Assembly: GCA_012730045.1 (NCBI GenBank)
Contig: JAAYBR010000002.1
Span: 28,911-92,910 of the forward strand
DNA: 64,000 nt
DNA from: Candidatus Hydrogenedentota bacterium
GTDB taxonomy: Bacteria; Hydrogenedentota; Hydrogenedentia; Hydrogenedentales; CAITNO01
Direction: 5' to 3'
Below, one piece after another: positions 3,659-62,244 of the stretch. Both the position numbers and the translations under genes were made by a program. The notes below the pieces were generated by a model. That model made no database searches and had not been told where the DNA came from. It was given only the letters and a program-made list of their open reading frames with translations. The first letter of the stretch is position 1, and each line of letters begins with the position of its first letter.

Positions 3659-3674
3659 GAACCGCGGGAATCCG

Positions 3675-10948: not shown

Positions 10949-11146
10949 TGTTCACTCTCCCAAGAGTTGGTTAACCGTACTCCAAGTCTCGAACGCGCCA
11001 CCTCAGATTGCCCTCAAGAAGCCCGCGTCCTAGGGATACCTGTTAAATTGTAGATACAATCGTTTCCAAAGTCAAGGAAAATGCGGAATCTTTTATTTTC
11101 TCCTGTTGCATGGGAGAACAGGCGGAAGGCAGGATGGGGGCGTTTT

Positions 11147-24523: not shown

Positions 24524-24534
24524 GACCGAACCTC

Positions 24535-24957: not shown

Positions 24958-24986
24958 AGTAATTCTCCTTGATGTGTTCACGTTGT

Positions 24987-26729: not shown

Positions 26730-26749
26730 AAATATTTATGAGGGGGCCG

Positions 26750-45190: not shown

Positions 45191-48100
45191 TCACCCGCGG
45201 CCCGCGGCCCGGCGCCGCCGGCCCGCCAGTGCGAGCAGACCGGCCGCGGCCAGCATCACCGCCGCATCGGCCCAGGACGTCCCCGAAGCCGTTCCGGGGG
45301 CGCATCCGATATAGCCGAGGAACTTGTTTCTGTTGTCGTCGTTGACGTACTCAAAGCCGTCCACAAGGATGTCCTCCTTGTTCTTGGCGGCGTTGCCCAC
45401 CTTGACATCCATTTTTCCGGTCTGGGCCATGCCGCCGACGGGGAACCCGACCACGAGGCGGGTGCCGTCGGGCGATCCGCCGATGACGGGCATGAGCGTC
45501 TTCCCGAAGTAGACCTGCGCCGACTGCACATCGCCAAGGTCCTCGCCGTACAGGGTGACGGGGAACTTCTTGCGCGAGGCGCGCTTCGGGTCAACGCGCA
45601 GCACCTTCGGGCTGCGCTCGGGCGTTCCGGGCGACAGCGAGAAGAGGTCCGAACGGCTGACCTCCTGCCCAGTGGCCGTGTTCCGGACGAGGAGCACGAT
45701 GGGCTCCACGGGCGGATCGTCGGACCGCGAGCTGACGGACAGGCTGATGGTGGTGTTCGTGGCGCCGGTCACGACGACGTCGTAGCCGCTCATGACCACC
45801 ACGGGCCGCGTGCCGAAGTTCTGGCCGTAGATCACGAAGCGGAACGGCTCGCCGGGCAGCGTCTGCGAGGGCAGCTCGGCCTGCGACACCGAGTCAATGG
45901 CGATGGTGGTCGGGCCCACCACGCGCGCCCGCGCCTCGAGCACGCCGGAAAGCTGCTTCTTCATCGTGTGGGACCGGATCCAGTTGAAGCCGCTGCTGTC
46001 CGGGCGGACCCCCGCCTTGGCGCCGTCCATCCAGTAATAGGCGGGCGGCGTGCGGAAGAAGGTCACGAACCCGAGGCCGCGCTGCGCCCACTGGAACTCG
46101 CGGAACTTGCGGAAGTCGTTGCGGTCCTCGCCGGGGAGGTTGGCCCACGTGTCGGGATCGGGCTCTGTCGGGGTGTTCGGACCCCACGAGACGATGCCGG
46201 CGCGGAAGCTGTCGCCCTCCTGCATGCCCTGGGCCGCGCGGACCACGACGAAGAAATCAGGGCCGTAGTCCAGGTCGTTGATGGAGACGCCGAAGGTCGG
46301 CTGAATCCACTGGCGGTTCCGCGACTGCTGCTCGCGCGGCAGCGGCTGGTCATCCGTGCCCGGGGTCGAGAAGACGAACCGGACCTGGATGTCGTCGGCG
46401 GTCTGCCCGGTGAAACGCGGCGGCCCGTCGAGCTGGATCGGGATGTCAATGCCGGGGTCGAAGTACCCGTTGCGGTTCTCGGGATGGTTGTCGTTGTCCC
46501 GGTAGAGGGCCACGCCGCTGATCCGCTGGTCCCTGCTCAGGGGAAGCAGGTCGGTCAGCGGGTTGAAGATGGCGTTGGCGCCGTTCTGGTACAGCTCGAC
46601 GGTCAGCTCCTCGAGGAACGACGGATCGCGCACGACGCGCCAGGCGCCGTTGCGCGGCGTCCCCGCGCGCAGCGTCAGCTCGTTCGCGGAGTTTCCGAGA
46701 ATCTCGTAGGTCTCGTACCCCGAGTCCACCAGCCAGTCGCCGGCAAGGGCGCCCGGCACCCACGCCGCCGAGGGCACGCGGTACCCGGACACGAGACCGA
46801 TGCCGCCGTTGCCCGCAGCAAGGATGTCGCCAGGGCGGTTCGTGGCCAGGTCGAGCCCGAGCACGGGAACGGCCTCGCCGCCGATGTTCAGCTTGGCGTT
46901 GCGGTTGGTAAGGTCCACCATGCGGACCGGGACGTTGACTTCCAGCATGTCATGCCCGTAGAAGTCCTGGACCGGGTCCTCGTCGGGGCTCGACTTGACG
47001 AAGGCCGTGCCGCTGGTGTTGACCGAGGGGAAGAACTGGATGCCGCCGCGGCGCTGGTTGTCGGGCCGCGTGGGCAGGTTGGCGGGGATGACGGCGCGAA
47101 TCTTCGAGAAGCGCGCCACGCTGTCCGAGGTGCTGATCGAGATGAACAGGTCGTCGCCGGGCTGGAGCACCTCGGGATCGAGGGCCTTCGCGCCGGGGGC
47201 CGCCTGCTGCACCCCGTTCACCTGGAGCGCGGTGGAGACGGGGCCCGCCCCCGCCGCCTTGTTGTCGTTGGGAATCTCGAAGTCGAACTCGTACCCGTCC
47301 AGGCGCGGCACCGTCCAGTTGCTCCTGGGATACAGCGTGAGCACCCAGGCCCGGTCGGCGTCGTCCACGATGCCGTTGCCGTCCATGTCGTCCGCACGGC
47401 CGTCCCCGTCGAGGTCCACCAGTTCGGGCTGGGACGCCCACTTGACGTTGGTCACGGGGACAATCCTGTCAAGCAGGGGAAGCGCGGCGCCGCTGCCGGC
47501 GTAGTTGTTCAAGTCCTGCGTGTTGAGGAAGATGCCGTTCTGGTCGGCGTCCTCCCACAACAGCACGCCGGAATCCAAGCTCTGGTTGTCGTTGGTGTCC
47601 GGGTCAAGCGTCCGGAGCATCGCCGGGGTAAAGTCCGGTCCCCAGAAGGCAACCGTGATCTGGCTGACGGCCACCGGCTCGCCGGTCGAGGTGACAATCG
47701 GGTCGGAGGATGCGACCAGGTTCATACCCAGCATGGGCATATGCGCGCTGTTGCCGTCCACTTTCTGGGCGAGCAGACGCGCGCCCGCGTTGGCGGACCG
47801 CCACTGGCTGGCCCGCGGATACTCGCCGGGGAGCAGCTCGGCGCTCCAGGTGCTGTAGCGGGGCAGCGCGGGCTGCTGCGGCGGCACGGGGTATGCCGAG
47901 GAACGCGGCCCGACAGGCGGCGCGTCACCAAGGGTGGACAGCGGACTGAAGAACGGCACCGTCTCGTAGGCGAACTGCCCCCAGCGTCCGGTGTCATCGT
48001 AGAGGAAGTTGACCTGGAAGAGGCCGAAGTCCACCACGCGCGCGCCAAAGAGACGCCAGTCGCGCACGTCCACCGTGTGGCCGTTCTCGAACTTGATCTG

Positions 48101-51100
48101 CTCCAGACCGAAGGGGTCGAGCCACTGGTCGAAGCCGCTGAGCATGCCCACACCGATGTCCGTGTAGCCGCCCAGGGTCACGTTGTCCAGGTCCACGTTG
48201 CCCGGGTTGTACACGTCCACGCTCGGGATGTAGAAGAGGTCCGTCTGGTTGCGGTAGGGCGAGTCGGACTCGTAGGTGATGACCAGGTCATGCACGTCCA
48301 CGCCCACGCGGATAGGCTTGGCCGTTGCCTGGTTGAAGGTGCGCTGCGGCCACCAGGGCTCATATTCGCCCCAGCGCGGGTCATTCTGCCACGGGTAGAG
48401 CGCCGTCGCGCCGAGCTTGACCCCCTGCGCGGGGATCATGCTGTCCACAAACACACCGCCCTCCCAGTTGCCGGACTCGGGGTTGAAGCGCCGCGGCTCG
48501 ATGAAGGCCCGGAAATCCGCGCCGTAGGTGATGCCCTGGCCGTCCCCCGGGGCGAGGGAAATGTCGCGGAAGCCGCTGTCGGTACGCACCACCACAAAGT
48601 AGTCCGGGGACGCCTCGGCGCCGAAATTGCCCATGGGGCCTTCGGCGTAGTTGTCCGGGGTCTTCTCGAGAAATCCCTCTGTAAATCCCTTGTCATAGGC
48701 GCCGTAGTTGCCGAGCTTGCGGGTGCCGCCCCACAGGCGCAGGGAAATCTTCCACCACGGGTCTCCGCCTCCCGGCGGCAGCGGGATGTACTCCCAAGTC
48801 GGCATGAGCTCCACGCTGGAGGAGGCGTTCGCGAGCATCGGGTAATCGCCGGCGAACGTGAGCCCGCCGATGGCATTCGGCGTGGGCGCGTCAAAGACAC
48901 CGTTGTTGTTGGTGTCGTGCCACACCCAGGTGCCGTTGTAGGTCAGCTCGCGGCCGAACACCTCCTCGTTGTAGAGCGGAAGCCCCCAAAGCTGTTCGGT
49001 GATGTCCTCCAGACCCGTCCGCGGGTCGAAGCCGCCGTTGCCGGGCGCACCGTAGGGGTCGCCGCCGATGTCGGTCAGGATGACGTTGACCTCGCGGAGC
49101 TGCGCCGCGTTTTTCTCGGAAATGTCGCGTGTAATCTCCGTGTCGGCGAAATGCACCGAGTTGGTGGAGTGAGCGTTGATCCCGAGGACGGACGACCAGG
49201 AGTCCACGCCCAGGAGCTTGCGCATCTGGAGAAACTCGCCCGCCACCACGTCAAGAAGCTGGTCCGGCTTGTTCCAACGCGGACGGGAATACTCCGCCAT
49301 GGGGGTGTACAGGAAATTCGGGTGACTCCAGGCGTCATGGAAAATGGGGGCCTGCCGCCCGGAGGGGGAACCCACATAGTCGTAGACCGTGAAGGAAGAG
49401 CTGTAAAACTGCTTGTCCTCCAGAATCTCGCCATCCCAGAAGTTCGGGGAGTAACTGTCGGTGGGCAGCCCCTCCTCGTCCACCGGGTAGGTTCCCGTGC
49501 GCGGGTCAACCATCACCGCGTCCAGCACCTCGACGCCCATGGTGAGCTGGCTGCGCCAGGTGGCGGAGGAGCGCACGGCCACGATGTACGAGTTGCCGTC
49601 CGGCCGGAAGTCCTCGTTTACCTCGCCTGCAGGCACGTCAAACTGCGGACGCGCCGCCGTTCCGTTGCCGATAAAGTCGAGCTCGTAGACGATGCCGGAG
49701 TACTGCTGGAGCCCGGTGATTTCGCCCACGGGGGCGCCCAGATTGTCCCAGGTGAACATCAGCTCGTCGTATTGGGAGTCAAGGATGCCGTTGAGCGGAC
49801 CAAGCACCTCCTCGGCCTCCTCACCGGCCTTGTTCTCGATGAACAGGCCGAACTCGAGCAGGTCCGTGAAATAGGGCGCGCCCATGTTGAGGTAATTCAG
49901 GTCGTCGTTGTTCCGGCTGTCCGGGCGAACCCAGTACGTCAGGGACTTCAGCTTGCGCGGCGCGAAGTTGTCGTTCTCCTCCTCGCTTTCCCCGTAGCTC
50001 ATGGTGAACCGGAAGAGGGGCACCCAGTCGGAGAGGGGCAGCACGGACTCCCGGTCCGCGACCAGGGTGGAGAAGGAGATGTCGGCCGTCGGCTCGTCCG
50101 TCTGGCCCTCACCCTCGCCCTCGCCCTCCCCCTCGCCTTCCCCTTCACCCTCGCCCTCAGTGCCGCACCCGATGCACTCGAGCACCTCGATGTAGTTCTC
50201 CCGGGTGAACTGGCGGGTGACCAGCGCGCCGCCGTTGCAGTTGTCACGGTAAGTCACCGTCAGAACCACGTCGTAGATGCCGGGCGCGGTGTAGCGGTGC
50301 ACGGGGTTGCGCTCGGTGGACGACTGGCCGTCGCCGAAGTTCCAGTACCAGCCCACGGGCGCGAAACAGCTGTCGCCCACGGAGAGGTCCGTGAAGGTCA
50401 CCGCCAGGGCGGGCACGGGGTTCGCGGGCGTGATGTTGCCGCGCGTCGGCGTCGCCGAGAAGTCCACATACGGCGTGGCCAGTATCTCGATGTACTCGGT
50501 CTTGGTGACCGTGGTCGTCACGCCGTACTGGTTGGTCACCGCGACCGACACGGTGTAGAAGCCCGTCGCGGTGTAGATGTGGACGGGGTTGATCTCGTTC
50601 GAGGCCTGCCCGTCGCCGAAGCTCCACGCCACGCTGGCGGCCTGGTTTGCCCCGATCAGCGTGAAGGCCACGCTGCCGTTGACGATCTGCCGGCGCGGGG
50701 TGCCGGTGAAGTCCAGGGTTGCCGGCGTGGTCGCCGTGACCGTCTGGGTGAGGTTGGCCACCGGGGTGTTGGTGCGGATCCAGTTGCGCAGGGCGGCGAA
50801 GTCGGGGCCGTCCTGGCTGCGGTCCACATCGGTCCGCGGAATCACGCTCATCTTGTCCTTGTCGAAGCCCCAGTAGCGCACGGGCCGCGGCCGCTGGAAG
50901 AGGGTGATGTACCCGACGGCGCGGCTTCCCCAGGGGAACTCGGAGAAGAGGTCAAACTCATCGGCGTTCTGCCCGGGAAGGGGCGGCGAGGCCAGGCTGA
51001 CCGTGAAGTTGTCCGGGTCGGGCTCGGTGGGGGTGTTCGGGCCCCAGGACACGATGGCGGCCTGGAACTGGTCGCCCTGGTTCATGGCCGTGGCGGCGCG

Positions 51101-54100
51101 CACCACGACGAAGAAGTCGGGGCCGAAGTCCGCGTCTGTGGGCGCGGCGCCGGGGGTCATGGGCACCCACTGGCGGTTGCGCGGCTGCGAGACGTAGGGG
51201 GTCGCGTCGCGGCCGATGAAGCTGTCCGTGCCGGGGGAGGCGAAGGTCATCTTGACCTGGTACTCGGGCTCGCCGCCGACCGCGCCGATCAGCACGGGCG
51301 GGTTGTCGAGGCGGACCGGAAGGTCAATGTACTCCGTGACATTCCCCTGGGCGTCGCGGACCGGCGGGTCATACACGCCGTTGCGGTTGCCGGGGTGGAA
51401 GTCGTTGTCGCGGTAAACCGAAACGCCGCTGAAGAGCCCGTTGATCGGGTCCTCATGGTCCAGGGGCACGAGGTCGCTCACCAGGTTGAAGGCGCCGGTG
51501 CGCGCGACGTCGTAGAACTCGACCACAAGCTGCTCGAGGAAGCTCGGGTCCTTGACAACGTACCAGGCCCCGTCGGTGCGCGGGGCGCCGGCGCGCAGCG
51601 TGAGGGTGCGCCCGCCGACCGCGGTGATCTCATAGGCCTCGACGCGCGGGTGGCTCCCCTGCGAAAGGCCGATAAGGTACAGCCCGACCGCGTTGGCGGT
51701 CCAGGCCCCGGAGGCGTAATAGGACGCGTTGGCGCCGGTGATGTCGGCCTCCGTCGGGATGAAGCTGGAGGCGGTGGTCTGCGCGCCCGTACCCTGGCCG
51801 CGCGCCACGATGTTCTCCGGCCGGTTCACCGAGCAGTCCAGGCCGAGCACGGCCGACTCCGCGCCGCCGGGCTGGATGGAGCCCGTGGACGTGTCAAAGA
51901 CCAGCGTGCGCACGTTGACGGGCAGCATGTCGTGCCCGTAATAGTCCTGCAGCGGGCTTTCCTCGATGTTGTGCTTGGTCATGGTGTCCACCACGTCGTA
52001 GGCGCGCGGCATCATCTGCAGCCCCGCGAGCTTGCGGGCGTCGGGCGTGCGCGTGGGCAGGTTGGCCGGCACCACGGCGCGGAACTCCATGAAGGCCTTG
52101 GCCTGCTGGCTGGTCCGCACGACCACGAACAGGTCGGCGCCCGGGCTGCCCGCGGCGATATTGAGGGCCTTCTCGTCGGCGGCCTTCAACGCCAAGTCCA
52201 CGAAGGAGGGGGCGTCAAGCCAGTAGTCCGGCCAGTCCGCAGCATCCTTGGCGCGGTCCCCGGCGGACTTGTAGAGGCTCACTCCGGTCTCGGTGTCCTT
52301 GTAGGGGACATCCCACTTTGTGCGCGGGATCAGCGTGAGCACCCAGGCGCGGTCGGACAGGCCGTCCCACGCCGCAAGCTCCGCCGCGCTGAGCCGCGCG
52401 ACGTCGGCGGGCACCAGCGGATCGCCGTCAAACACGACACCGTCGCCGCTGAGGTCGTCCGGCAGGTAGTCGTCGTCGAGGTCTATGACCTCCGGGGCCT
52501 GCGCCCACGACAGGCTGCCCTCCGCCAGCGGCACGATCCGGTCGGTGAACGACGGGGAGGTCACCCCGCTCGTGAGGAAGGGGCCGTCGAAGACACCGTT
52601 GTTGTTGCTGTCCTCGTAGAGCAGGACGCCGGAGGTGAAGAGGGCGCCGTCCACGTCCAGGCCGGAGAGCTGGCCGGGCGTGAAGTCGGGGCCCCAGAAC
52701 GCGACCGTGGCGTTGCTGAGGCTGATGGGGCTGTAGGCGTTGACTGCGGGGTCGTCGGTGCCGGCCAGGTTGAACCCGAGCATGGCCGTGGGCAGGGTGT
52801 CCACGCCGATGTACTGCTTGAGCAGGCGGGCCGCCCACGCGTTGGAGGCGTTCAGCAGCCGCTCGGGCCGCCAGTCCTCCAGCCGCGGATACACGCTCCG
52901 GGGAAGGGTGTCCTCCACGATCATCCAGCGACCGCGTGAAACGGCGTTGCCGATGCCCACGCCGACACCGTAGGGGTAGTCCGGAACACTCAGATCGACG
53001 GGGGCCTGCGAGCGGTCAAGATAAGCGCCGTGGCCCTCGCGCAGGGTGAGCGAGTTTCCGCTGTTGCTGAGGATGTAGTACCGGCCGCCGTAGTTGTCCA
53101 CCAGCCATTTTCCCGCGAGGTCCCCCGCGAGGGGGCCGAGGTGCGGGCCGTTCACGACGAACACATAGACGTCGTCGGCGTAGGTGGCCTCCGCCCCGCT
53201 GGCGCCGGTGAGGTTGTACGGCACGTTGGCCTGGGCGCCCTCGCTGGCCAGGTAACAGAGGCTGGTGTCGCCCCAATTAATGATCGTCTGGCCGCCCTGG
53301 TACCCGGCCCAGGTGGAGTAGCGCGGAAGCGTGGGCTGGGACGGCGGATCGGGCCAGAAGGTGGACCGCGGCTCGGCCAGCTCCTCATCCAGACCGTCCC
53401 CCTCCAGCTTGAAGGGCACCGTCTCAAAGGCGTAGTGGGTCATGAGCCACTCGCCCGCGCCCCGGAAGGAGTCGAAATAGTCGGGGAACATGAACGGGTT
53501 GTGCCGGTGGAAGAAACGCAGCTCGCCCATTCCGTAGAAATCGACGAGGTCCTTCGCCTGGAAAGCGTCCCAGATGTACCGGGGGGGGCCCGACGGATAG
53601 TATTCATAACCGGGGACGTCAATGTCGTCGGTGTTAAAGAACGCCGGATCGGTCCACAGGGAGATGGCGGTGCGGCCGTTCCATTCGGCATCCAAAAAAA
53701 TTTGACGCGCTAACCCGGTGACCGGGTCAATATAACCGAAAAAGTCGAACGCGTCCAGGGACTGGCCCGCCATGGCGGGGGTCACCTTGGCCCAGCGGTT
53801 GTCCGTGGCGTAGGTCAGCACGAGATCGTGCACCTCGGCGCCGCAGCGCACCGCCTTGACCGTGTCCCGGTTGTGGCTGCGCTCGGTCCACCACCCGTAC
53901 TCGCGCTTGATCACGTAGGAGCACGGGAAGTCGGAGGGATCGCAGACGAGGTCGTTCGCGGCGGCGTTCTGCCACAACACGCCAAACGTCTCGCCGACCG
54001 TGAGCTTCTCCCGGGCCTTGTCCGGCCACGGATTAATTGGCGTGCCGTTAATCGTGATGCCGGCCAGGTATTCGGCCATCACCTTGTACTGGATGTTGAA

Positions 54101-56398
54101 GAGAATGCCGCCGTCCCAGGAGCCCCCCTCGGTGCCCTTGGGGTTCCACCGGCGTGGCTGCACGAAACAGCGGGTGTCGGCGCCCAGTTTCATCCCGACG
54201 CCGTCGCCCTCCACGCCCGACACGTCGCGGAAACCGCTGTCGGCGCGCATCACCACGAAGTAATCCATTTTGGGCGGATAGTTCATGAGGAGGTTGTAGT
54301 TCGCAATGGCGTCCGGCGTCCCCTCCATGGCGCCCGTGGGCGTGTCGCCGGGGTTGCGCCGGCGGCCGCCGGAGAATCCGAGCCCGATGGTCCACCACGG
54401 GTCGCCGCCGCCCGGCGGGAAGGGCTCGTAGCCCCACTGCTGCATGCCGGGAAGTATGGGCTGGGTCTCGCCAAACGTGCCCGGAAGATACGGATACATG
54501 GGGTAGTCGGTGAACTGGATGCCGAGCGTGCCGCGGGGCGCCGGGGGGTCAAACTGGCCGTTGCCGTTGGTGTCGTGCCACAGCCAGAGGCCGTTGTACG
54601 CGAAGTCCTCGCCGGTGGCGTTCTCCGCGTCCACCCTGCCCACGGTCGTGAATTTTTCCAGCCTCTCGCTCGGGTCGCCGAGGCCGCCGTTGCCGGGGGG
54701 GCCGAAGGGGTCGCCGCCCACGTCCGTGATGGCCATGTGCAGCGACGTGGGCTGGGGGATTCCGCCGACGCCCGGCAGGCCGTGGGCGTCTATGCCCAGC
54801 AGGGGCACCCAGGACTCCACGGAGAAGAGCTGGCGCATGTCCACCGCCTCGCCGATGAGGGCCTGCAGGGAGGCCGTGGCCAGGTCCCAGCGCGGGCGCA
54901 CAAACTGCTCCAGGGGGGTGTAGAGCGAAGGCTGGTCGTTCCAGCTGTTGTAGCGCATGGGAAGGACGCCGCCGCGCACGTCGAACACGCCGAAACTCGA
55001 CGAGTACGCCTCCTCGGGCGCCAGGGTTTCCCCCTTGAAGAAGTCCGGGGAGAAGGTGTCCATCGGAACCCCTTCATCGTCCAGGGGCATCGTCTGCATC
55101 CGCACCTCGCCCGTGGTGAGGTCAACGTAATACGGCTGCATGCAAACGTTGGTCAACTCCATGCTGAGGGAGGTGCCGGTCTGCCAGGCGGACGACAGCC
55201 GCACGGCCACGACATAGTTGTTGCCCGTCGGCGAGGTCGTGATCCACTCGCCCTCGGGGCGGAAGGGGCCGGGCGCCGTGGACCCGAAAATTTCGCTGCC
55301 CGGATTGTTGACGGCCACCGGGAAGTCCGGGTCCGTGCTGTCGTAAATGAAGCTGAGGTTGTAGACGTTGTCGTTGATGTTGTACTTGAGCCCGTTGGGG
55401 GCGACGGTGTTTCCGCTAAAGGCCGGCATGTCGTACGGCCAGCCGTGGCTGTCCCATTCATACAGGGGTTCGGAATAGGCCACCACCTCGGGAATGTCCG
55501 GCAAACCCACCTGCACGTTGTCCCCGGAAGGCAGGCCGTCGCCGTCCAGGTTGAAGACCTGATGGACGGAGAAAATCAGATAGTCGCTCTCCTGGGGGGA
55601 GATGTTGTTGATGTAGCCGCGGTCTGTCATGGAGACCGGGTCTCTCTTCAGGCGGAAACTCAGGCGTGTCAGGGCGCGGGGCGCGGGCTCATTCTCGTTG
55701 CTCCACTTGAGGGTGAATCCGAAAAGGGGCACCCAGTCGTTCAGCGGAACCAGGCCGGCGGCGTCGGTGATGTACTCCTCCGCGGTGAAGTCCGCCGTGG
55801 CGACCTCCGCGACGGTGATGGCCTCCACGAGGTCCACGCGGCATATCTGGGTCGTGCTGTCGGGCATGATGATGACCGCCTCAACGATCACATCGTAGTC
55901 GCCGCCGTTGGCGATGCTCCCCGTCACGGTGGGCAGGTCGGCGACGGTGCCTGCGGGGGTCTGGTTCACGGCGTTGGCGTTGGGGTTGGGCTTGGGCTCG
56001 GTCCGGTCGGCAAACCAGGCGCGGTAGAGGTCCACGTCCTCCTTGACATACCAGTAGCGCGCGCGCTCAATGCGGACGGGGATGCGGCTGGGCAGTGAGA
56101 ACGCCCGGGCGAGCAGCTGAAAACTGCCGCCGGGTGTCACGGGGTTCGGCGACACGCTCAGCTCAACGCTCACCTGGTAGGGCGGGAGGAGGCAGTCAAT
56201 CTGGCCGGGCGCGAGGCTGGCCGAGACCAGGCCCGCCAGAGCCGCGTCGCTCCCCGCAAAGGCGACCCGCATGGGTTCCGCCCGCCGGGCGTCCTGGGAT
56301 AGAACGCCCGGTGCGCGTGCCACCAGGAACCCCGCCAGTCCCACAAGCACAAGACCCCACAGGGCCACTCTGATTGTCGCGCGAAGTCGTGTGTTCAC
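45191..56398 (-). CDS. giant secreted surface protein (about 3735 aa): two roughly 1.3-1.8-kaa tandem modules separated by a PKD-domain pair and (GE)9 linker, C-terminal IPT/TIG-like domains, Cys plus hydrophobic helix plus RRRR anchor
   Basis: GTG start with signal peptide VNTRLRATIRVALWGLVLVGLAGFLVARAPG. PKD motifs WSFGDGQ…NPVHIY…GFYTV and WNFGDGQ…NPVHRY…GIYDV. C-terminus …GCAPGTASGTSWADAAVMLAAAGLLALAGRRRRAAGRG. The internal duplication is visible at DNA level. Confidence 0.8.
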   Translation of the reverse strand: MNTRLRATIRVALWGLVLVGLAGFLVARAPGVLSQDARRAEPMRVAFAGSDAALAGLVSASLAPGQIDCLLPPYQVSVELSVSPNPVTPGGSFQLLARAFSLPSRIPVRIERARYWYVKEDVDLYRAWFADRTEPKPNPNANAVNQTPAGTVADLPTVTGSIANGGDYDVIVEAVIIMPDSTTQICRVDLVEAITVAEVATADFTAEEYITDAAGLVPLNDWVPLFGFTLKWSNENEPAPRALTRLSFRLKRDPVSMTDRGYINNISPQESDYLIFSVHQVFNLDGDGLPSGDNVQVGLPDIPEVVAYSEPLYEWDSHGWPYDMPAFSGNTVAPNGLKYNINDNVYNLSFIYDSTDPDFPVAVNNPGSEIFGSTAPGPFRPEGEWITTSPTGNNYVVAVRLSSAWQTGTSLSMELTNVCMQPYYVDLTTGEVRMQTMPLDDEGVPMDTFSPDFFKGETLAPEEAYSSSFGVFDVRGGVLPMRYNSWNDQPSLYTPLEQFVRPRWDLATASLQALIGEAVDMRQLFSVESWVPLLGIDAHGLPGVGGIPQPTSLHMAITDVGGDPFGPPGNGGLGDPSERLEKFTTVGRVDAENATGEDFAYNGLWLWHDTNGNGQFDPPAPRGTLGIQFTDYPMYPYLPGTFGETQPILPGMQQWGYEPFPPGGGDPWWTIGLGFSGGRRRNPGDTPTGAMEGTPDAIANYNLLMNYPPKMDYFVVMRADSGFRDVSGVEGDGVGMKLGADTRCFVQPRRWNPKGTEGGSWDGGILFNIQYKVMAEYLAGITINGTPINPWPDKAREKLTVGETFGVLWQNAAANDLVCDPSDFPCSYVIKREYGWWTERSHNRDTVKAVRCGAEVHDLVLTYATDNRWAKVTPAMAGQSLDAFDFFGYIDPVTGLARQIFLDAEWNGRTAISLWTDPAFFNTDDIDVPGYEYYPSGPPRYIWDAFQAKDLVDFYGMGELRFFHRHNPFMFPDYFDSFRGAGEWLMTHYAFETVPFKLEGDGLDEELAEPRSTFWPDPPSQPTLPRYSTWAGYQGGQTIINWGDTSLCYLASEGAQANVPYNLTGASGAEATYADDVYVFVVNGPHLGPLAGDLAGKWLVDNYGGRYYILSNSGNSLTLREGHGAYLDRSQAPVDLSVPDYPYGVGVGIGNAVSRGRWMIVEDTLPRSVYPRLEDWRPERLLNASNAWAARLLKQYIGVDTLPTAMLGFNLAGTDDPAVNAYSPISLSNATVAFWGPDFTPGQLSGLDVDGALFTSGVLLYEDSNNNGVFDGPFLTSGVTSPSFTDRIVPLAEGSLSWAQAPEVIDLDDDYLPDDLSGDGVVFDGDPLVPADVARLSAAELAAWDGLSDRAWVLTLIPRTKWDVPYKDTETGVSLYKSAGDRAKDAADWPDYWLDAPSFVDLALKAADEKALNIAAGSPGADLFVVVRTSQQAKAFMEFRAVVPANLPTRTPDARKLAGLQMMPRAYDVVDTMTKHNIEESPLQDYYGHDMLPVNVRTLVFDTSTGSIQPGGAESAVLGLDCSVNRPENIVARGQGTGAQTTASSFIPTEADITGANASYYASGAWTANAVGLYLIGLSQGSHPRVEAYEITAVGGRTLTLRAGAPRTDGAWYVVKDPSFLEQLVVEFYDVARTGAFNLVSDLVPLDHEDPINGLFSGVSVYRDNDFHPGNRNGVYDPPVRDAQGNVTEYIDLPVRLDNPPVLIGAVGGEPEYQVKMTFASPGTDSFIGRDATPYVSQPRNRQWVPMTPGAAPTDADFGPDFFVVVRAATAMNQGDQFQAAIVSWGPNTPTEPDPDNFTVSLASPPLPGQNADEFDLFSEFPWGSRAVGYITLFQRPRPVRYWGFDKDKMSVIPRTDVDRSQDGPDFAALRNWIRTNTPVANLTQTVTATTPATLDFTGTPRRQIVNGSVAFTLIGANQAASVAWSFGDGQASNEINPVHIYTATGFYTVSVAVTNQYGVTTTVTKTEYIEILATPYVDFSATPTRGNITPANPVPALAVTFTDLSVGDSCFAPVGWYWNFGDGQSSTERNPVHRYTAPGIYDVVLTVTYRDNCNGGALVTRQFTRENYIEVLECIGCGTEGEGEGEGEGEGEGEGEGQTDEPTADISFSTLVADRESVLPLSDWVPLFRFTMSYGESEEENDNFAPRKLKSLTYWVRPDSRNNDDLNYLNMGAPYFTDLLEFGLFIENKAGEEAEEVLGPLNGILDSQYDELMFTWDNLGAPVGEITGLQQYSGIVYELDFIGNGTAARPQFDVPAGEVNEDFRPDGNSYIVAVRSSATWRSQLTMGVEVLDAVMVDPRTGTYPVDEEGLPTDSYSPNFWDGEILEDKQFYSSSFTVYDYVGSPSGRQAPIFHDAWSHPNFLYTPMAEYSRPRWNKPDQLLDVVAGEFLQMRKLLGVDSWSSVLGINAHSTNSVHFADTEITRDISEKNAAQLREVNVILTDIGGDPYGAPGNGGFDPRTGLEDITEQLWGLPLYNEEVFGRELTYNGTWVWHDTNNNGVFDAPTPNAIGGLTFAGDYPMLANASSSVELMPTWEYIPLPPGGGDPWWKISLRLWGGTRKLGNYGAYDKGFTEGFLEKTPDNYAEGPMGNFGAEASPDYFVVVRTDSGFRDISLAPGDGQGITYGADFRAFIEPRRFNPESGNWEGGVFVDSMIPAQGVKLGATALYPWQNDPRWGEYEPWWPQRTFNQATAKPIRVGVDVHDLVITYESDSPYRNQTDLFYIPSVDVYNPGNVDLDNVTLGGYTDIGVGMLSGFDQWLDPFGLEQIKFENGHTVDVRDWRLFGARVVDFGLFQVNFLYDDTGRWGQFAYETVPFFSPLSTLGDAPPVGPRSSAYPVPPQQPALPRYSTWSAELLPGEYPRASQWRSANAGARLLAQKVDGNSAHMPMLGMNLVASSDPIVTSTGEPVAVSQITVAFWGPDFTPAMLRTLDPDTNDNQSLDSGVLLWEDADQNGIFLNTQDLNNYAGSGAALPLLDRIVPVTNVKWASQPELVDLDGDGRADDMDGNGIVDDADRAWVLTLYPRSNWTVPRLDGYEFDFEIPNDNKAAGAGPVSTALQVNGVQQAAPGAKALDPEVLQPGDDLFISISTSDSVARFSKIRAVIPANLPTRPDNQRRGGIQFFPSVNTSGTAFVKSSPDEDPVQDFYGHDMLEVNVPVRMVDLTNRNAKLNIGGEAVPVLGLDLATNRPGDILAAGNGGIGLVSGYRVPSAAWVPGALAGDWLVDSGYETYEILGNSANELTLRAGTPRNGAWRVVRDPSFLEELTVELYQNGANAIFNPLTDLLPLSRDQRISGVALYRDNDNHPENRNGYFDPGIDIPIQLDGPPRFTGQTADDIQVRFVFSTPGTDDQPLPREQQSRNRQWIQPTFGVSINDLDYGPDFFVVVRAAQGMQEGDSFRAGIVSWGPNTPTEPDPDTWANLPGEDRNDFRKFREFQWAQRGLGFVTFFRTPPAYYWMDGAKAGVRPDSSGFNWIRSHTMKKQLSGVLEARARVVGPTTIAIDSVSQAELPSQTLPGEPFRFVIYGQNFGTRPVVVMSGYDVVVTGATNTTISLSVSSRSDDPPVEPIVLLVRNTATGQEVSRSDLFSLSPGTPERSPKVLRVDPKRASRKKFPVTLYGEDLGDVQSAQVYFGKTLMPVIGGSPDGTRLVVGFPVGGMAQTGKMDVKVGNAAKNKEDILVDGFEYVNDDNRNKFLGYIGCAPGTASGTSWADAAVMLAAAGLLALAGRRRRAAGRG

Positions 56399-56793: not shown

Positions 56794-58638
56794 CTACGAT
56801 GAGGGCACTTCCTCCAACCCCTCAAGGGCGTCCCGCAGGGCGTCCACCGCGTCCTGACTCACCCGAAACACCCCCGCCTTGCCCTCCAGGGTCGCAAACC
56901 GCTCCCGGGAATTTTCCGGCGAGACGCCGCCGATGCGCAGGGGACCGATGCGCTCGCCCGCCGCGGGCGGCGCCACGGGGGCCATGCGGACATAGAGGGT
57001 GAAGACGGGCTTGTCCAGCCCGTAGACGGACAGGTCGCGCGGCGCCTCCGGGGCCGCGAGCCCCGTGATGCGCAGGGGGCTGACCGCCGCGAGCAGGGCC
57101 TCGGCGTCCGACTGGTTCTTCAGTCGGAGGGTCTCGGGCCGCGTCACGACCCACTGGCCGTGGCGCCTCTCCAGAACCGCGCCCAGGTTCTCGAACTGGA
57201 ACTCCAGCACCTCCGCATCCGGCCGGTTGAAGCGCAGCAGCTCCATGGAGCGGAATTTGTCCGCTGTCAGCAGCAGCGCGTCCACGGCCACGCCGCGCAG
57301 CGCGACCACGCCGCCGCTGTCCTGGGTGGCGTACCACAGAGACGCGTTGTCCGGGCTGGGCCAGAGGGAGAGCGACGCGGTTGCGCCGTCGTCGTGGGAC
57401 AGGGTGATGGAGACCTGCGGGGCGACGCCGCCGGGCAGGGTCTCTGGGGCAACGTCGAGCGGCTCGCCCCGGCTCTCCTTGAGCACGGCGAGGAACCCGG
57501 ACACGGCGAACTGGTTGACCTCCGGCAGGGCCGGCGCCGTGAGGCTCCAGGCCCCGTCCGCGCCGCGTTCGAGCACAAGCGTCTCCTCCCCCCGCCGGTA
57601 CTCGACCTTTTTGAGCTCGCTCAGGCGGCGGGTGATCAGGCGCGTCTCGCGCCAGGCATCGGGCTTGCGCGGCAGGAGCATCATGATCTGTGCGTCCATC
57701 TGGAAGACGGCGCGCTGGCCCGCCACCTGGGCCCACACGCCCCCCTTCTCGCCGTCCACGGCGCCGAGAAGAATGTTCTGCGCGCGGCCGCTTTTGCCGT
57801 CCACCACCGTGATCCGCGCGGCCGCCGGGCTGAGGCCGTAGTCCGACAGGTTCTCCGGCGCGTCCACAAACTCGCGCCCGACGGCGAACTGCACCTCTTT
57901 GACCACCTCGTCAACCTTCTCCTGGTCGGCCATGGCGTCCAGCGGCGCTTCGAGGCGCCAGGGCTCGCCGGCGGCGGCGCGCCGCACGACGACCTCGGTG
58001 GACTCCTCGCCGACGGCGGGCTGGTCCTCCGGGGGGGCCGCGTCGGTGCCGGTCCAGATCCAGGCGAACCGGAATTCCAGAATGTCCGCCTCGCGGTCCT
58101 CGACCAGGAAGCGGTGGCGCAGCTCCTCCAGGGATCGGTTGACCTCGAAGAACTCGCGCGTGTCCGCGAGGAGGAGCGGCCCGCCGTTAAGGCGCGCGTA
58201 CCGGTGGCGCTGGGTGGGTTCCACATCGCCGAAGACCACGGTGGCGGGCGCCGCGTCCCCGGCCTCCACCGTGACCGTGAGGGCGGGCACGTCAAGGCCG
58301 TACTCCGCGGGGTCCGCCGGCGTCTCCGCCACGGTGCGCTGGCTGCGCAGGGTGGAGAGGTTGTCCGCCACGCGGTCCCACAGCATCTGCAGCGGGGGGA
58401 TGGTGTCGTTGGGCGCGGTGATGCGCCACGCGCCGTCCGCGCCGCGCTCGCCGGTCACGGCGGGCTGGCCGACCTGGGCCAGGGTCAGGCGGCGCACATC
58501 CTTCCCCTGAAAGTCGAAGAGCCGCGCGGCCTCGGCCGCCCGCTCCGCCGTGCGGCGGCCGCGTTGGCGCATGCCCCAGTAGACGCCGCTGAGCAGGGCC
58601 AGCGCGAGCAGGAGCAGGAGCGTGGAGCGGAACTTCAT
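56794..58638 (-). CDS. DUF4340-domain protein (GldG-associated periplasmic protein)
   Basis: Signal/TM MKFRSTLLLLLALALLSGVYWG. Repeated DUF4340-like modules (…W.L..P…D…V……L..L……). Start overlaps the gldG-like stop (ATGA). Confidence 0.65.
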   Translation of the reverse strand: MKFRSTLLLLLALALLSGVYWGMRQRGRRTAERAAEAARLFDFQGKDVRRLTLAQVGQPAVTGERGADGAWRITAPNDTIPPLQMLWDRVADNLSTLRSQRTVAETPADPAEYGLDVPALTVTVEAGDAAPATVVFGDVEPTQRHRYARLNGGPLLLADTREFFEVNRSLEELRHRFLVEDREADILEFRFAWIWTGTDAAPPEDQPAVGEESTEVVVRRAAAGEPWRLEAPLDAMADQEKVDEVVKEVQFAVGREFVDAPENLSDYGLSPAAARITVVDGKSGRAQNILLGAVDGEKGGVWAQVAGQRAVFQMDAQIMMLLPRKPDAWRETRLITRRLSELKKVEYRRGEETLVLERGADGAWSLTAPALPEVNQFAVSGFLAVLKESRGEPLDVAPETLPGGVAPQVSITLSHDDGATASLSLWPSPDNASLWYATQDSGGVVALRGVAVDALLLTADKFRSMELLRFNRPDAEVLEFQFENLGAVLERRHGQWVVTRPETLRLKNQSDAEALLAAVSPLRITGLAAPEAPRDLSVYGLDKPVFTLYVRMAPVAPPAAGERIGPLRIGGVSPENSRERFATLEGKAGVFRVSQDAVDALRDALEGLEEVPSS

Positions 58639-60305
58639 TGGTGCCTCCCGCGCAGGGCGCGCGCCAGCAGGCCCGCCGCGGCCACGGCCTGCACGAGGCA
58701 CATGACGGCGACCCAGGCCGCGGCCCGGCGCTGCGTGTCCGTGAGGATCAGGGGGGCGGCCTCGGCCCCCGTCGGGCGGATGGCGATCAGCTCCTCGCTC
58801 TCGTTCATCCACGCAAAGGTGTTCATGAGGAAGTTCAGGTGGCCGGGCACGGTGACCTGCCCGTTCGTGGCGAAGTCCGCGTCGCCCACCACGACCACGC
58901 GGGCGTCCCCCCTGCCCTTCGGGCTCTTCTCCTGGTCCACCCGCACCTGGACGGCCGCGGCCACGGGGATCGGACCCTTCGCGTCCGCCTCGTCCCGCTT
59001 GGCCTGGCCCGTCTCCAGCAGTTTCGCCGTGTCGGTCTCGGCCCAGAAATCCGGCGTGGTCCGCAGCAGCTCCACGCCCGACACGCCCGCGGGGGGCTTT
59101 TCCGCCAGCCGCACGCTGCGCAGCGCCTGCAGGAGCATGGTCTGGTCGAAGCCCCGGGTGACGGGATGGTCCTTGTGGTAGCAGCCCTGGTATTCCATGA
59201 ACCCGGCGTCCACGCCCTCGAACGGCTTCCCGTCATAGGAGAGCTCGGCCTGCCACTTGTTCGAGGAGGCGTCGGTGATGACCAGGTCGCCGCCGACGGT
59301 GATCCCGAAGCGGCGCGCCAGCCAGGGCCGCAGCTGCTCCCCGGACACCGCGCCCTGCGGGGCGGCGCGCCACGGGTCCATCAGCACCAGCAGGCGGCCG
59401 CCGGCGTCCACAAAGGCGTCCAACGCCTCGATCTCCAGGGGGTGCAGGTCCGTCTGCGGATTGGCAATCACCAGCACGTCCACGTCCTTGGGAATCTCCG
59501 GCTGGGCGAGCTTGATGTTCAGGCGGTCCAGGGCGAAGGACTCCCCCGTAAGAAGCTGCACCAGCCCCGACAGGCCGCGCTCGTCCTGCCCCGCCGGGTC
59601 GCGCTCCTCGTGCCCCCCAAGGAAGGAGACCTTCGGCTCCGTGTCGCGCAGGACGTTGATGAGGGCGTTGGTGAATTCGCGCTCCTCGAGGCGCGGGCTG
59701 CCGCCCGAGAGGGTGATCACCCGCTGGCGGTCGCCCGCGCGCACGACCACGGTGCCCTGCGTGGACGCGTGGGTGATCTTCAGCTCCTCCACCCGCCCGC
59801 GCTCCACCGTCGGGTCGAGCACCTCCACCTGGATCTGGTCGGTGAGTTTCCGGCACTGTTCCAGAAAGCGCAGCGTCTTGTCGCGCGCGATGACCACCAG
59901 CTCGTCGTCCACGTCGAGGAAGAAACAGATGACCTCGACGGGCTGCGTGATGTTGCGCAGCACCTGCGCGGTGAGCGGCGACAGGTCGCGCCGCCCCTCC
60001 TTCGTCAGGTCCCATTTCGCGTCCCAGGACTGCACAAAGAGGTAGGCCACCACGCAGATGCCCAGAAAGGCAGCCGTGGACACGGCGGCGTTGAGGCCGC
60101 CGAGCGAGCGCTCCTCCGCCGCCCCGCGCACAAAGTAGGAGAACAGGGTGAGCCCGGCCCACGCCAGCCCGAGCGCCGCGGACAGCCCCAGCGGGGCTGT
60201 CACGGGGAGGGAGAACGGGTCGGACACCCAGAAGACCGCGTTGAGCGCCGCCACCGCGCACAGGATGGAGAACACGCCCGCCAGCTGCCGCGCCCGCCGC
60301 ATCAT
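58635..60305 (-). CDS. GldG-like ABC-transporter auxiliary protein (ABC_transp_aux family), N- and C-terminal TM anchors
   Basis: Start MMRRARQLAGVFSILCAVAAL…; large periplasmic region; C-terminal TM …AAWVAVMCLVQAVAAAGLLA. Overlaps the permease stop (ATGA). Confidence 0.7.
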   Translation of the reverse strand: MMRRARQLAGVFSILCAVAALNAVFWVSDPFSLPVTAPLGLSAALGLAWAGLTLFSYFVRGAAEERSLGGLNAAVSTAAFLGICVVAYLFVQSWDAKWDLTKEGRRDLSPLTAQVLRNITQPVEVICFFLDVDDELVVIARDKTLRFLEQCRKLTDQIQVEVLDPTVERGRVEELKITHASTQGTVVVRAGDRQRVITLSGGSPRLEEREFTNALINVLRDTEPKVSFLGGHEERDPAGQDERGLSGLVQLLTGESFALDRLNIKLAQPEIPKDVDVLVIANPQTDLHPLEIEALDAFVDAGGRLLVLMDPWRAAPQGAVSGEQLRPWLARRFGITVGGDLVITDASSNKWQAELSYDGKPFEGVDAGFMEYQGCYHKDHPVTRGFDQTMLLQALRSVRLAEKPPAGVSGVELLRTTPDFWAETDTAKLLETGQAKRDEADAKGPIPVAAAVQVRVDQEKSPKGRGDARVVVVGDADFATNGQVTVPGHLNFLMNTFAWMNESEELIAIRPTGAEAAPLILTDTQRRAAAWVAVMCLVQAVAAAGLLARALRGRHQ

Positions 60306-61135
60306 TTGCCCCTCCAGTGGCGGCTTTCCAGCGCGCGGAAAGTCAGGAAAAGGAAGAACGCCGAAACCAGCAGATAGTACGCGATGTCCGGGGGCGACAC
60401 GACGCCCAGGGCCATGTCCCGCGCGTGGTTGTCCAGCGCAAGCTCCATCACCAGCCCGCGGAACAGGGCGTAGCCGCCGCCGAAAGCCGTGCGCACCGTC
60501 TCGGGCCACGCCGCGGGCGCCGGGTTGGCCGCGGGCAGCTTCTCGCCCACGTTGCCCAGGATGTACAGCAGGAGGAACCCGCCGAAGGTGACAATGCCCG
60601 CCGTGATCTGGCTGCGCGCCAGGGCGGACACGAACAGGCCGATGGCGAGGAAGGCCATGCCCATGAGCCACACGGTGCACACGCCGAAGATGATCACCGC
60701 GGGCTCCAGCGCGACAAACCGGGACACGACCAGCAGGTGCACCGAGACAATGAGCATGAGCACGAGCAGGATGCCCAGCGACGCGAGGTATTTTCCGAAG
60801 ATGATCTCCCGGTCGCGCAGGGGCCAGGTCAGCAGCAGCTCCATGGTGCCCCGGTGCCGCTCCTCGGCCAGCAGCCGCATGGTGATCAGCGGCGACAGGA
60901 ACATGATCCAGATTCCCGTGAACACCAGATAGGGGCTCAGGAAGGTCTCCGCGAAGTCCGGCACGGTGGAGTAGCCGTAGGAGGTCGGGTCCACGGACAT
61001 CTTGGCGTAGGTGAACAGGGACAGCGCGAAGGCCAGCCCGGAAATGAGGGCGAACACCCCCGTCACGATGTACCCGACGGGCGTCAGGAAAAAGGCGGAA
61101 AACTCGCGGCGGCAGACGGCCCAGGTGTTTCTCAT
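60302..61135 (-). CDS. ABC-2 family permease (GldF-like)
   Basis: Six-TM ABC-2 pattern, …RELLAEERHRGTMELLLT… motif. Confidence 0.8.
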   Translation of the reverse strand: MRNTWAVCRREFSAFFLTPVGYIVTGVFALISGLAFALSLFTYAKMSVDPTSYGYSTVPDFAETFLSPYLVFTGIWIMFLSPLITMRLLAEERHRGTMELLLTWPLRDREIIFGKYLASLGILLVLMLIVSVHLLVVSRFVALEPAVIIFGVCTVWLMGMAFLAIGLFVSALARSQITAGIVTFGGFLLLYILGNVGEKLPAANPAPAAWPETVRTAFGGGYALFRGLVMELALDNHARDMALGVVSPPDIAYYLLVSAFFLFLTFRALESRHWRGK

Positions 61136-61890
61136 GCCGCGCCCCCCCCGGACGCGCCGCGCTCCTCCGACGCGATCACCCGCATGAAGACCTCCTCCAG
61201 GGGCCGCTTCCCCTCACCGGTCAGGTTGGCCAGGCTGTCCTGCACCACCACGCGCCCCCGGTGGATGATGATCACCCGGGAGCAGGTCATGGTCACCTCG
61301 GGGAGGATGTGCGTGCTGAGGAGGATCGTGTGCTCGCGCCCCAGTTCCTTGATCATGTTGCGTATCTCGACGATCTGGCCCGGGTCCAGCCCCACCGTCG
61401 GCTCGTCGAAAACGAGCACCGGCGGGCTCCCCACCAGCGCCTGCGCCAGCCCCACGCGCTGACGGTAGCCCTTCGACAGGTTCCCCGTCAGCCGCTTCGC
61501 CATGTGCGTCAGGCCGCAGCGCTCCATCACCCGGTCCGCCTCCGCCCGCCGCGCCGAACGCGGCACCCCCTTCACCACCGCCACATGGCGCAGGAACGAC
61601 TCCACCACCATCTCCTCGTACAGCGGCACGCTCTCCGGCAGGTAGCCCACCCGCCGCTTCACCTCCAGCGGCTGGTCGTGCACCTCGAACCCCGCCACCC
61701 GCGCGCGCCCCCGCGTCGCCGGGGTGAACCCCGTCAGGATGCGCATGGAGGTGCTTTTCCCCGCGCCGTTGGGCCCGAGAAACCCCACGATCTCCCCCTT
61801 GCCCACCTGGAAGGAGACGTCCTCCACGGCGGGAATCGCGCCGTAATACTTGGTCAGGCCCTCAGCCTCAATCATGATTTCCTGGCTCAT
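61132..61890 (-). CDS. ABC transporter ATP-binding protein (GldA-like)
   Basis: Walker A GPNGAGKST, signature LSKGYRQR, Walker B LVFDEP. Starts at MSQEIMIEAEGL. Confidence 0.85.
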   Translation of the reverse strand: MSQEIMIEAEGLTKYYGAIPAVEDVSFQVGKGEIVGFLGPNGAGKSTSMRILTGFTPATRGRARVAGFEVHDQPLEVKRRVGYLPESVPLYEEMVVESFLRHVAVVKGVPRSARRAEADRVMERCGLTHMAKRLTGNLSKGYRQRVGLAQALVGSPPVLVFDEPTVGLDPGQIVEIRNMIKELGREHTILLSTHILPEVTMTCSRVIIIHRGRVVVQDSLANLTGEGKRPLEEVFMRVIASEERGASGGGAA

Positions 61891-62103
61891 GCGGCCATTA
61901 TCCCTCTCAGGCGGTTTATGCCGGAGCCACCCCAAATACCGGCGGCGGCATACGACATATTGAACGCGTCTTGACCGGAACACATCATATTGTGCGCCGA
62001 ACCGCACCCCAAACGCAACCTGTGGGGCGGGTCCGTTACCAAGAAAATGCGCCCGGCCGGAGTCCTTCCGACAAGAGATTGCCGCGCCGGCCGGGGCGAC
62101 CGG

Positions 62104-62244
62104 CTCGCAACGACGCGGAGATTTCCGTCATGGCGAGCAAAGCGACGCCATCTCGTTCTCGCGCAGGCCAGGGCAGCCGTCTCGCAACAACGCGGAGATT
62201 TCCGTCATGGCGAGCGAAGCGACGCCATCTCGCTCCCGCGCCGG
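62104..62244. repeat. two tandem about 76-bp units of palindromic repeat family 2 (…ctcgcaacgacgcggagatttccgtcatggcgagcgaagcgacgccatctcg…)
   Basis: Direct tandem duplication read from the sequence; related copy at 20549..20608. Confidence 0.5.

Follow-up and report, generated by a model that had tools for sequence, protein, structure and literature searches.

A single gene of 11.2 kb encodes a protein of 3735 amino acids (aa) in a 64,000-nucleotide stretch of a Candidatus Hydrogenedentota genome (assembly GCA_012730045.1, contig JAAYBR010000002.1, positions 28,911 to 92,910), hereafter called the window. The protein is built from two tandem copies of a very large module, belongs to a family that is restricted to Hydrogenedentota and relatives, and ends in a tail with a conserved cysteine, a transmembrane (TM) helix and an arginine cluster. 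On balance, and with somewhat better than even confidence, it is read as a giant, non-enzymatic envelope or surface protein that is exported by the Sec pathway and a type II secretion system (T2SS) and anchored at its C-terminus after sorting of the MYXO-CTERM kind. The same joint estimate covers the nature of the module, taken to be an all-beta unit of ~1300 aa composed of several beta-sandwich domains with acidic DxDxDG-type loops.

The gene and its two modules

The gene lies at 45191..56398 on the minus strand, as do all the window features described below, with its stop codon at 45191-45193, a GTG start and no internal stop. Its GC content at third codon positions (GC3) is 0.90 from end to end, as in the other genes of this window of ~68% GC. 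The minus-strand frame is open from 56716 to 45191. The start was placed at GTG 56398 (an adjacent in-frame GTG stands at 56401), which follows a Shine-Dalgarno-like GGGAGAG, opens a typical signal peptide, MNTRLRATIRVALWGLVLVGLAGFLVARAPG, and yields the uninterrupted 3735-aa translation. Because of this upstream site and signal peptide it was preferred over ATG 56716; the longer open reading frame (ORF) of 3841 aa that begins there adds 106 residues that are basic, of low complexity and devoid of a signal peptide. The N-terminus (aa 1-~33; 56300..56398), a signal peptide or signal anchor that was read from the sequence and not called by a predictor, consists of a basic n-region followed by the hydrophobic stretch VALWGLVLVGLAGFLVA. 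Behind it, the N-terminal region at aa ~36-245 (55664..56293) has no Pfam match at E <= 1 and lies outside the duplicated unit. The ORF proposed in the initial annotation is accordingly accepted as uninterrupted and with a supported start, and the four peptides quoted there are all present in the protein.

Comparison of the N-terminal with the C-terminal half by self-BLASTP gave two collinear alignments, one between aa 246-1031 and 2153-2852 (32% identity, E 7e-92) and one between aa 1170-1889 and 2860-3489 (39.5% identity, E 1.5e-123). In addition, the hidden Markov models (HMMs) of part A and part B each match the window protein twice. The N module (aa 246-1889; 50732..55663), delimited by self-BLASTP and by both HMMs, is the divergent and faster-evolving copy. 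The C module (aa 2153-3489; 45932..49942), both halves of which were modelled with AlphaFold2 (AF2), is the canonical copy and is closer to the single-module homologues. A gap in the alignment of the two modules marks an insertion of ~140 aa in the N module (aa ~1031-1170; 52889..53308), which holds an extra copy of a small 'LxDxxYExYEIxGN...LTLxxG...WxIV' beta subdomain; a 31-aa match of 61% identity was found between aa 1092-1122 and aa 3216-3246.

The tandem duplication described at first is thus genuine, with a unit of ~1.3-1.6 kaa in place of 1.5-1.8 kaa. The segments then given as collinear paralogues, aa 630-1880 and 2265-3500, are indeed collinear; since the alignments start at aa 246 and aa 2153, the duplicated unit is nevertheless larger than had been stated. 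At the DNA level, the resemblance reported between 45.9-49.6 and 50.8-54.5 kb is present as patches and not as continuous similarity. The best patch reaches 65% over 597 nt (51010-51604 against 46150-46678), and the few others span 30-150 nt at 70-94%.

Fold of the module

For structure prediction, 55 homologues were aligned to each half of the C module. The AF2 model of aa 2120-2860 has a predicted local distance difference test (pLDDT) of 79.7 and a predicted template modelling score (pTM) of 0.84, that of aa 2855-3500 has a pLDDT of 86.4 and a pTM of 0.86, and both half-models consist of beta-strand nearly throughout. High pTM values over 650-740 residues suggest a compact unit with defined packing between domains, not beads on a string. 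Fold searches returned weak matches to single beta-sandwich domains and nothing beyond. The beta-propeller or beta-helix adhesin suspected earlier finds no backing in these models and matches.

At least two beta domains within the module are homologous to each other. Alignment of module slices with hhalign related D3 (aa ~2907-3104) to D4 (aa ~3258-3402) with 97% probability and an E-value of 7e-11. A four-fold internal repeat of one beta domain per module was considered and dropped as such, for it is solid for the D3-D4 pair alone; the probabilities of 71% for D2 with D4 and 46% for D1 with D4 are suggestive. In the recurring domain pattern, a strand leads into an acidic D-x-[DN]-x-N-G-x-F-D loop, and the strand D-[FY]-F-V-V-V-R-x-S comes further on. 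Moreover, a nearly invariant DLDGDGxADDxNGDGxVD stretch resembles a pair of Ca-binding loops.

A family restricted to Hydrogenedentota and relatives

The species representatives of GTDB were scanned with the junction region of the protein, comprising the end of the N module, both PKD domains and the start of the C module (801 residues). Two loci span all 801 residues, L005 at 90% identity and L006 at 49%. The first, from a Candidatus Hydrogenedentota metagenome-assembled genome (MAG), contains an ORF of 3848 aa counted from the first possible start and is collinear with the whole window protein at 84% identity; the ORF of the second has 4391 aa and is collinear at 44%. The same gene was found with frameshifts in L004, where the fragments are still collinear. 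An exhaustive search added the full-length two-module proteins P0071-P0076, of 3470-4344 aa, and the two-module gene is present in at least nine other assemblies (L005, L006, L048, P0071-P0076). That search also yielded two proteins with three modules in tandem, P0093 (4408 aa) and P0189 (4516 aa), which form a divergent branch with a CFI-box tail, and module multiplication therefore occurred more than once. Members of the family hold one, two or three modules.

A word-indexed search gave 70 clusters, whose source names are all Candidatus Hydrogenedentes or Hydrogenedentota bar one 'Nitrospiraceae'. Profile searching relied on one query of 1200 aa. The exhaustive HMMER search covered 1.84 billion representative proteins and gave 142 clusters at E <= 1e-3. 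Its weakest full-length members include a Candidatus Abyssubacteria SURF_5 protein, in which both module halves match, weakly. Because so few clusters were found in so many representatives and the named members are Hydrogenedentes or Abyssubacteria, the family is regarded as a lineage-specific invention of Hydrogenedentota and relatives. The MAG that carries L006 (CAYYRW010000007.1) is labelled 'uncultured Nitrospirales' yet has a giant gene, a partner gene and a T2SS cluster of the Hydrogenedentota type, and the sources of P0068 and P0284 are likewise labelled 'Nitrospiraceae'. All three labels are probably binning or taxonomy errors. In the literature, no paper was found on the family or on 'CFI-box', and nothing relevant on Hydrogenedentes surface proteins or on type II secretion in Hydrogenedentota.

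The two modules differ in their degree of conservation. Single-module homologues share 34-55% identity with the C module. Against nearly all full-length homologues the N module reaches 31-37% identity, a value that rises to as much as 49% with fragments of other two-module proteins. A rough neighbour-joining distance tree of the better-conserved half groups the N modules of the window, L005, L006, P0057 and P0061 in one clade, on a long branch, and places the C modules in a separate clade, which lies within a set of single-module proteins that carry the same type of tail. In the comparison of the window with L005, the N module has a ratio of non-synonymous to synonymous substitution rates (dN/dS) of 0.27 and the C module one of 0.135. 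Both copies are therefore kept by purifying selection, the N copy changing about twice as fast as the C copy at non-synonymous sites.

Linker domains and the junction between the modules

Two PKD domains (aa ~1890-2075; 50174..50731) follow the N module and match PF18911 (E 7.9e-25) and PF00801 (E 2.3e-15) in two stretches each. At aa ~1907-2056 both models score above their Pfam gathering thresholds, with 87.2 bits against 27 and 56.8 bits against 23.5, respectively. Next comes the junction (aa ~2074-2100; 50099..50179), made of a LECIGCG motif and an acidic linker, in which an (EG)9 run occupies aa 2081-2098 directly after IEVLECIGCG. Both the PKD pair and the (GE)9 linker had been placed between the copies in the initial annotation, as had an IPT/TIG-like region after them, and both locations hold. 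Of the latter region, IPT-like domain 1 (aa ~3495-3590, ~95 aa; 45629..45916) has no Pfam match in the window sequence and is assigned because homologues have two IPT/CoaZ-like domains, the first of which aligns with it. IPT/TIG domain 2 (aa ~3597-3669; 45392..45610) passes PF01833 with 25.0 bits (cut-off 20.9) when the tail is scanned alone, the scan of the whole protein giving no TIG match even at E <= 0.1. The family profile, for its part, matches the TIG domains of COE among PDB sequences.

The junction is informative about how the gene may have arisen. Most two-module orthologues read ...ITVRPC[VI]GC[GPS] followed by (GE)n at the exact site of the IEVLECIGCG-(EG)9 of the window, the Cys pair being missing in two of them (P0076, P0077). 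P0015, which has one module, and P0120, a distant relative, likewise show a (GE)n run directly behind the signal peptide, and the C-terminal tails of the two-module clade begin with a similar G-C-[GAS]-[PAG] signature. An ancient event, duplication or fusion of genes, placed two units head to tail in this clade, and the motifs suggest a fusion of two tandem paralogous genes. In such a fusion the sorting-signal Cys motif of the upstream gene and the acidic linker behind the signal peptide of the downstream gene would have been kept, and the TM helix and Arg cluster of the former would have been lost together with the signal peptide of the latter.

The C-terminal tail

The last part of the protein is a tripartite tail (45194..45319) in which GYIGCAPG, with its conserved Cys, is followed by a polar spacer, a TM helix and RRRR. 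This arrangement, GYIGCAPG...AAVMLAAAGLLALAG RRRR, agrees with the MYXO-CTERM-like tripartite pattern in architecture only, and the protein end reads ...GYIGCAPGTASGTSWADAAVMLAAAGLLALAGRRRRAAGRG. The hydrophobic helix and RRRR at the very end bear out the C-terminal anchor proposed at the outset. A short tail of this kind occurs in ~28 family members of at least 1200 aa. Its [G]-C-[GAS]-[PAG] signature is followed by 10-18 residues that are small or polar, often with G-D among them, and then by the TM helix and the Arg cluster. Nearly all two-module proteins, that of the window included, belong to this set; examples are P0002-P0013 and P0071-P0075.

Another 45 family proteins of at least 1200 aa end in CFI-box-CTERM (NF041770), with scores such as 84 bits in P0019 and 76 bits in P0044 for a cut-off of 40. 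The Cys of the short tail aligns with the Cys of the CFI-box, and this column is kept in at least 90% of the rows across both tail types. Neither the window protein nor its isolated tail matches NF041770, and the tail is not matched by MYXO-CTERM (TIGR03901), JDVT-CTERM, Synerg-CTERM or CGP-CTERM. The short tail looks like a truncated relative of CFI-box-CTERM, and it is a candidate for a new Cys-type sorting signal.

A partner gene and the type II secretion genes of relatives

Downstream of the giant gene lies a partner gene of 831 aa (42618-45113), whose product is 29% identical (E 2e-79) to that of the gene which follows the giant one in L002. It stands next to the giant gene in every examined locus that is long enough, L001 excepted. 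A start at ATG 45305, which would overlap the giant gene, was rejected in favour of GTG 45113, which fits the identical 831-aa protein P0190 as well as the N-termini of homologues. The partner family comprises 95 clusters, 11 of them with an organism name, nearly all Hydrogenedentes. It is metzincin-derived and some members reach the matrixin model; the HExxHxxGxxH motif is intact in 37 of the 95 clusters and degenerate in the other 58, and the zinc motif is degenerate in the window too (TASGLMLGLGL). The layout consists of an invariant Cys, a CFI-box-like helical region, two TM helices with a basic loop between them, the second helix resembling a signal peptide, and a C-terminal domain of ~190 aa. 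The CFI_box_CTERM model scores 39.2 bits on the partner of the window and 42.5 on that of L006. The partner looks as if two secreted proteins had fused.

In the relatives, this pair of genes is associated with type II secretion. The order giant gene, partner, gspC-D-E-F-G, all on one strand and with gspD as the secretin gene, was observed in L002, L049, L050 and L051, which have a single-module gene, and in L048, which has a two-module gene. In L006, also with two modules, the giant gene and the partner are followed by gspC, where the readable sequence ends. The order thus recurs in six of the eight related loci examined. In L001, T2SS genes are nearby on the opposite strand.

A proposed route to the surface and its alternatives

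Taken together, these features would fit the following course of events. The protein would be exported by Sec through its N-terminal signal peptide and then be retained for a time in the inner membrane by the Cys, TM helix and Arg cluster of its tail. A sorting enzyme may cleave at or near the conserved Cys, and by analogy with MYXO-CTERM this Cys might be lipidated. Transfer to the cell surface would be mediated by the T2SS, and the protein would be held there by its C-terminus. In such a position the conserved C module would be proximal and the faster-evolving N module distal and exposed. The role would be that of a structural coat or an adhesive layer, the reach of which may be set by the number of modules (1, 2 or 3). 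SLH and other S-layer anchor domains have no match in Pfam or NCBIfam, an S-layer-like role still being compatible. RTX repeats (HemolysinCabind or related) have no Pfam match either, and a Sec-type N-terminus is present instead.

A more ambitious version of this proposal is put forward tentatively, as a possibility with the odds against it. The family would be a dedicated Hydrogenedentota T2SS cargo encoded in the same operon, sorted by two related, hitherto undescribed Cys-containing signals, CFI-box-CTERM and the short 'GC...GD-TM-RRR' form derived from it, and would build a phylum-specific outer coat with the aid of the partner. Its module would represent a new multi-domain beta architecture without a solved relative. 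In such a coat the number of modules would determine thickness or reach, the metzincin-derived partner would often be catalytically dead and the distal module would diversify fastest.

Several points weigh against the main reading. The partner is followed in the window by a URO-D-like gene and not by T2SS genes, so that the linkage comes from the relatives only. No T2SS gene was found among the ORFs scanned in the window, a few short inter-ORF stretches lying outside that scan. A sorting enzyme (CPBP/myxosortase, rhombosortase or exosortase) was likewise absent from the window and the flanks read, with no match to PF02517 (CPBP) among the ORFs scanned in the 64-kb window. NCBIfam models gave zero matches on the 62-aa tail, even at E <= 10. 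Gene adjacency is in itself no proof of a cargo relationship, and a protein that remains tethered to the inner membrane is conceivable. That the acidic loops bind calcium is plausible, judged from the sequence only. Finally, the neighbour-joining tree is a rough one, in which the N clade occupies a long branch.

The best-surviving alternative, although an unlikely one, dispenses with T2SS export altogether. The protein would be a periplasmic scaffold tethered to the inner membrane, perhaps working with a transporter encoded by the genes directly upstream on the same strand. These genes, identified by Pfam, encode an ABC ATPase (61132-62127), an ABC-2 permease (60302-61213), a GldG-like ABC_transp_aux protein (PF09822, 101 bits; 58635-60680) and a DUF4340 protein (56794-58812), the start codons of this operon (56794..62127) being approximate. 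The operon and its position on the strand of the giant gene are as initially annotated, and the name 'gldA/F/G' given to it goes too far, because the upstream gene is not GldG proper: it scores 46.1 bits on the GldG equivalog TIGR03521, for which the cut-off is 389.85. L048 (4183-9568) has all four of these genes ahead of its two-module gene, a DUF4340 gene confirmed by Pfam lies upstream of the giant gene in L006 (948-2792), and in L005 ORFs directly upstream correspond to the GldG-like and DUF4340 genes of the window by size match alone. A tether is favoured by this neighbourhood, by a tail that can be seen as a plain TM helix with an Arg cluster and is matched by no sorting-signal model, and by the lack of adjacent T2SS genes in the window. 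On the other hand, the Cys before the helix is kept across two tail types and would be needless in a simple anchor. In addition, the ABC, GldG-like and DUF4340 genes do not precede the single-module relatives, their linkage being confined to the two-module clade, while the T2SS linkage is widespread. Proteins of 1800-4400 aa that are rich in PKD and IPT domains are, moreover, more typical of the extracellular space.

It is still less probable that the module hides an enzyme, for example a glycan-degrading or glycan-binding one, in which case the protein would be a surface-displayed hydrolase like PulA. No catalytic domain was found by Pfam and NCBIfam, which match PKD and TIG only, and a comparison of the family profile with all PDB sequences gave TIG as the sole match. 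Among 56-57 aligned sequences including the N copy, G, P, W, D and R make up most of the invariant residues of the module, and there is no invariant His or Cys. All these lines agree with the earlier statement that the module has no recognisable catalytic motif.

A further alternative, which we consider quite improbable, is that the giant protein and its partner are not cargo but accessory or structural parts of the T2SS, such as an outer-membrane or surface assembly platform. The pair does hold the first two positions of the T2SS cluster in most relatives, and the loss of the protease motif in 58 of 95 partner clusters suggests a non-catalytic role. We know of no T2SS with a component of this size or kind, however, and a module number that varies from 1 to 3 together with a fast-evolving distal module fits an exposed product better than a part of a machine. 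The window, besides, has the pair separated from T2SS genes. Lastly, the idea that the duplication is an assembly artefact or a misjoining of two adjacent genes, and with it the initial worry over collapse or expansion, draws on the general risk of repeats in metagenome assemblies and nothing more, and it is excluded: copies that are 32-40% identical in protein and share short DNA patches only leave no room for collapse or expansion, the frame runs through without a break and with uniform GC3, the two-module ORF recurs in independent assemblies (L005, L006, L048, P0071-P0076), and the L004 fragments are collinear despite their frameshifts, so that the duplication is real and old.

Other features of the window

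Elsewhere in the window, a 1608-aa ORF at 6125-10951 (minus strand) matches Ig_3 in seven stretches (E 5.9e-71) and I-set (E 5.7e-55). Such eukaryote-type immunoglobulin matches are unusual for a bacterial protein. A low-GC island was also observed at ~23700-27400, with a GC content of 0.53 against ~0.68 elsewhere. Its four genes, all on the minus strand, are a 277-aa ORF without assignment, a DUF1425 gene, a 580-aa ORF without assignment and a gene for an LpoB-like lipoprotein. The stretch is not an rRNA operon, because a scan of the window with Rfam gave no rRNA or other match, and it may have been acquired horizontally.

Significance

To our knowledge, the Hydrogenedentota have no well-studied cultured representative. 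The present analysis defines in this phylum a large, conserved and lineage-restricted family of envelope proteins, together with a partner and a link to a T2SS operon, and puts forward a specific candidate for the principal surface structure of these bacteria. Absent from the initial annotation were the strand of the gene, the presence of a conserved partner, the T2SS linkage seen in relatives, the restriction to the phylum and the Cys-containing, sorting-signal character of the tail. The family is also a new test case for the coupling of C-terminal Cys-containing sorting signals to type II secretion beyond Myxococcota and Vibrio. The series of one, two and three modules and the conserved relic motif at the junction provide a natural experiment on the growth of giant surface proteins by fusion of whole units. 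A structure of the module would add a new architecture, since the module has no relative in Pfam, NCBIfam or PDB. Should the protein turn out to be merely one more adhesin, the gain would be a better annotation of ~140 clusters now labelled hypothetical, PKD or IPT/TIG. Among the by-products, the T2SS-operon linkage and the short Cys tail are of greater interest.

Comparison with known systems

Among systems already described, the upstream operon shares with GldA, GldF and GldG of Bacteroidota an ABC ATPase, an ABC-2 permease and an ABC_transp_aux protein. It differs by the additional DUF4340 gene, and the window showed no further genes for gliding.

The giant adhesins of type I secretion systems (T1SS), such as LapA, SiiE, MpIBP and the SwmB-like proteins, are likewise multi-thousand-residue, all-beta and probably Ca-binding surface proteins. 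They are made of many short (~100 aa), near-identical Ig-like repeats, carry RTX/T1SS ends and have no Sec signal peptide. In contrast, the window protein has two large (~1300-1600 aa) compact modules that are 32-40% identical, a Sec-type N-terminus and no RTX, and its family is highly conserved across the phylum.

Most single-module and the three-module relatives end in CFI-box-CTERM (NF041770; 76-84 bits, cut-off 40), the partner contains a CFI-box-like region, and the Cys of the CFI-box aligns with that of the window tail. The window tail differs in lacking the helical FRD...YY...SP part, so that the Cys, spacer, TM helix and RRRR remain.

In Klebsiella, the gene for PulA adjoins the pul secreton genes. 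PulA and VesB, a GlyGly-CTERM protein of Vibrio cholerae, are T2SS cargo that stay on the cell surface (surface display: PMC11980579), as is proposed here. Both are normal-sized enzymes in which catalytic domains are recognised, whereas the window protein has 3735 aa and no such domain. The lipid anchor of PulA is moreover N-terminal, and the putative anchor of the window protein is C-terminal.

A close parallel is offered by MYXO-CTERM proteins of Myxococcota, for instance TraA, with the myxosortase MrtX and the T2SS. MYXO-CTERM and GlyGly-CTERM proteins are processed at a tripartite C-terminal signal and then reach the surface by way of the T2SS (PMC11980579; bioRxiv 10.1101/2023.06.07.544157), the GlyGly-CTERM proteins of Vibrio behaving similarly to MYXO-CTERM (PMC11980579). 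The window protein resembles them in its signal peptide, its large beta-rich, presumably extracellular region, its tripartite C-terminal signal with conserved Cys, TM helix and Arg cluster, and the T2SS association (PMC11980579). In the same way, its internal, relic-like Cys motif at the probable fusion point parallels MXAN_5598 (PMC11980579). Differences are that the window tail has neither a TIGR03901 match nor the GCGC consensus, that the phylum is another one and no myxosortase homologue was identified, that most family members bear the much longer CFI-box-CTERM, and that the T2SS link comes here from gene order alone. The module itself is undescribed, and its duplication in the window is one instance of a recurrent pattern of one, two or three copies in the family. 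By analogy, the protein would work most like the MYXO-CTERM and GlyGly-CTERM surface proteins or like PulA, yet by sequence it is a member of none of those signal families.

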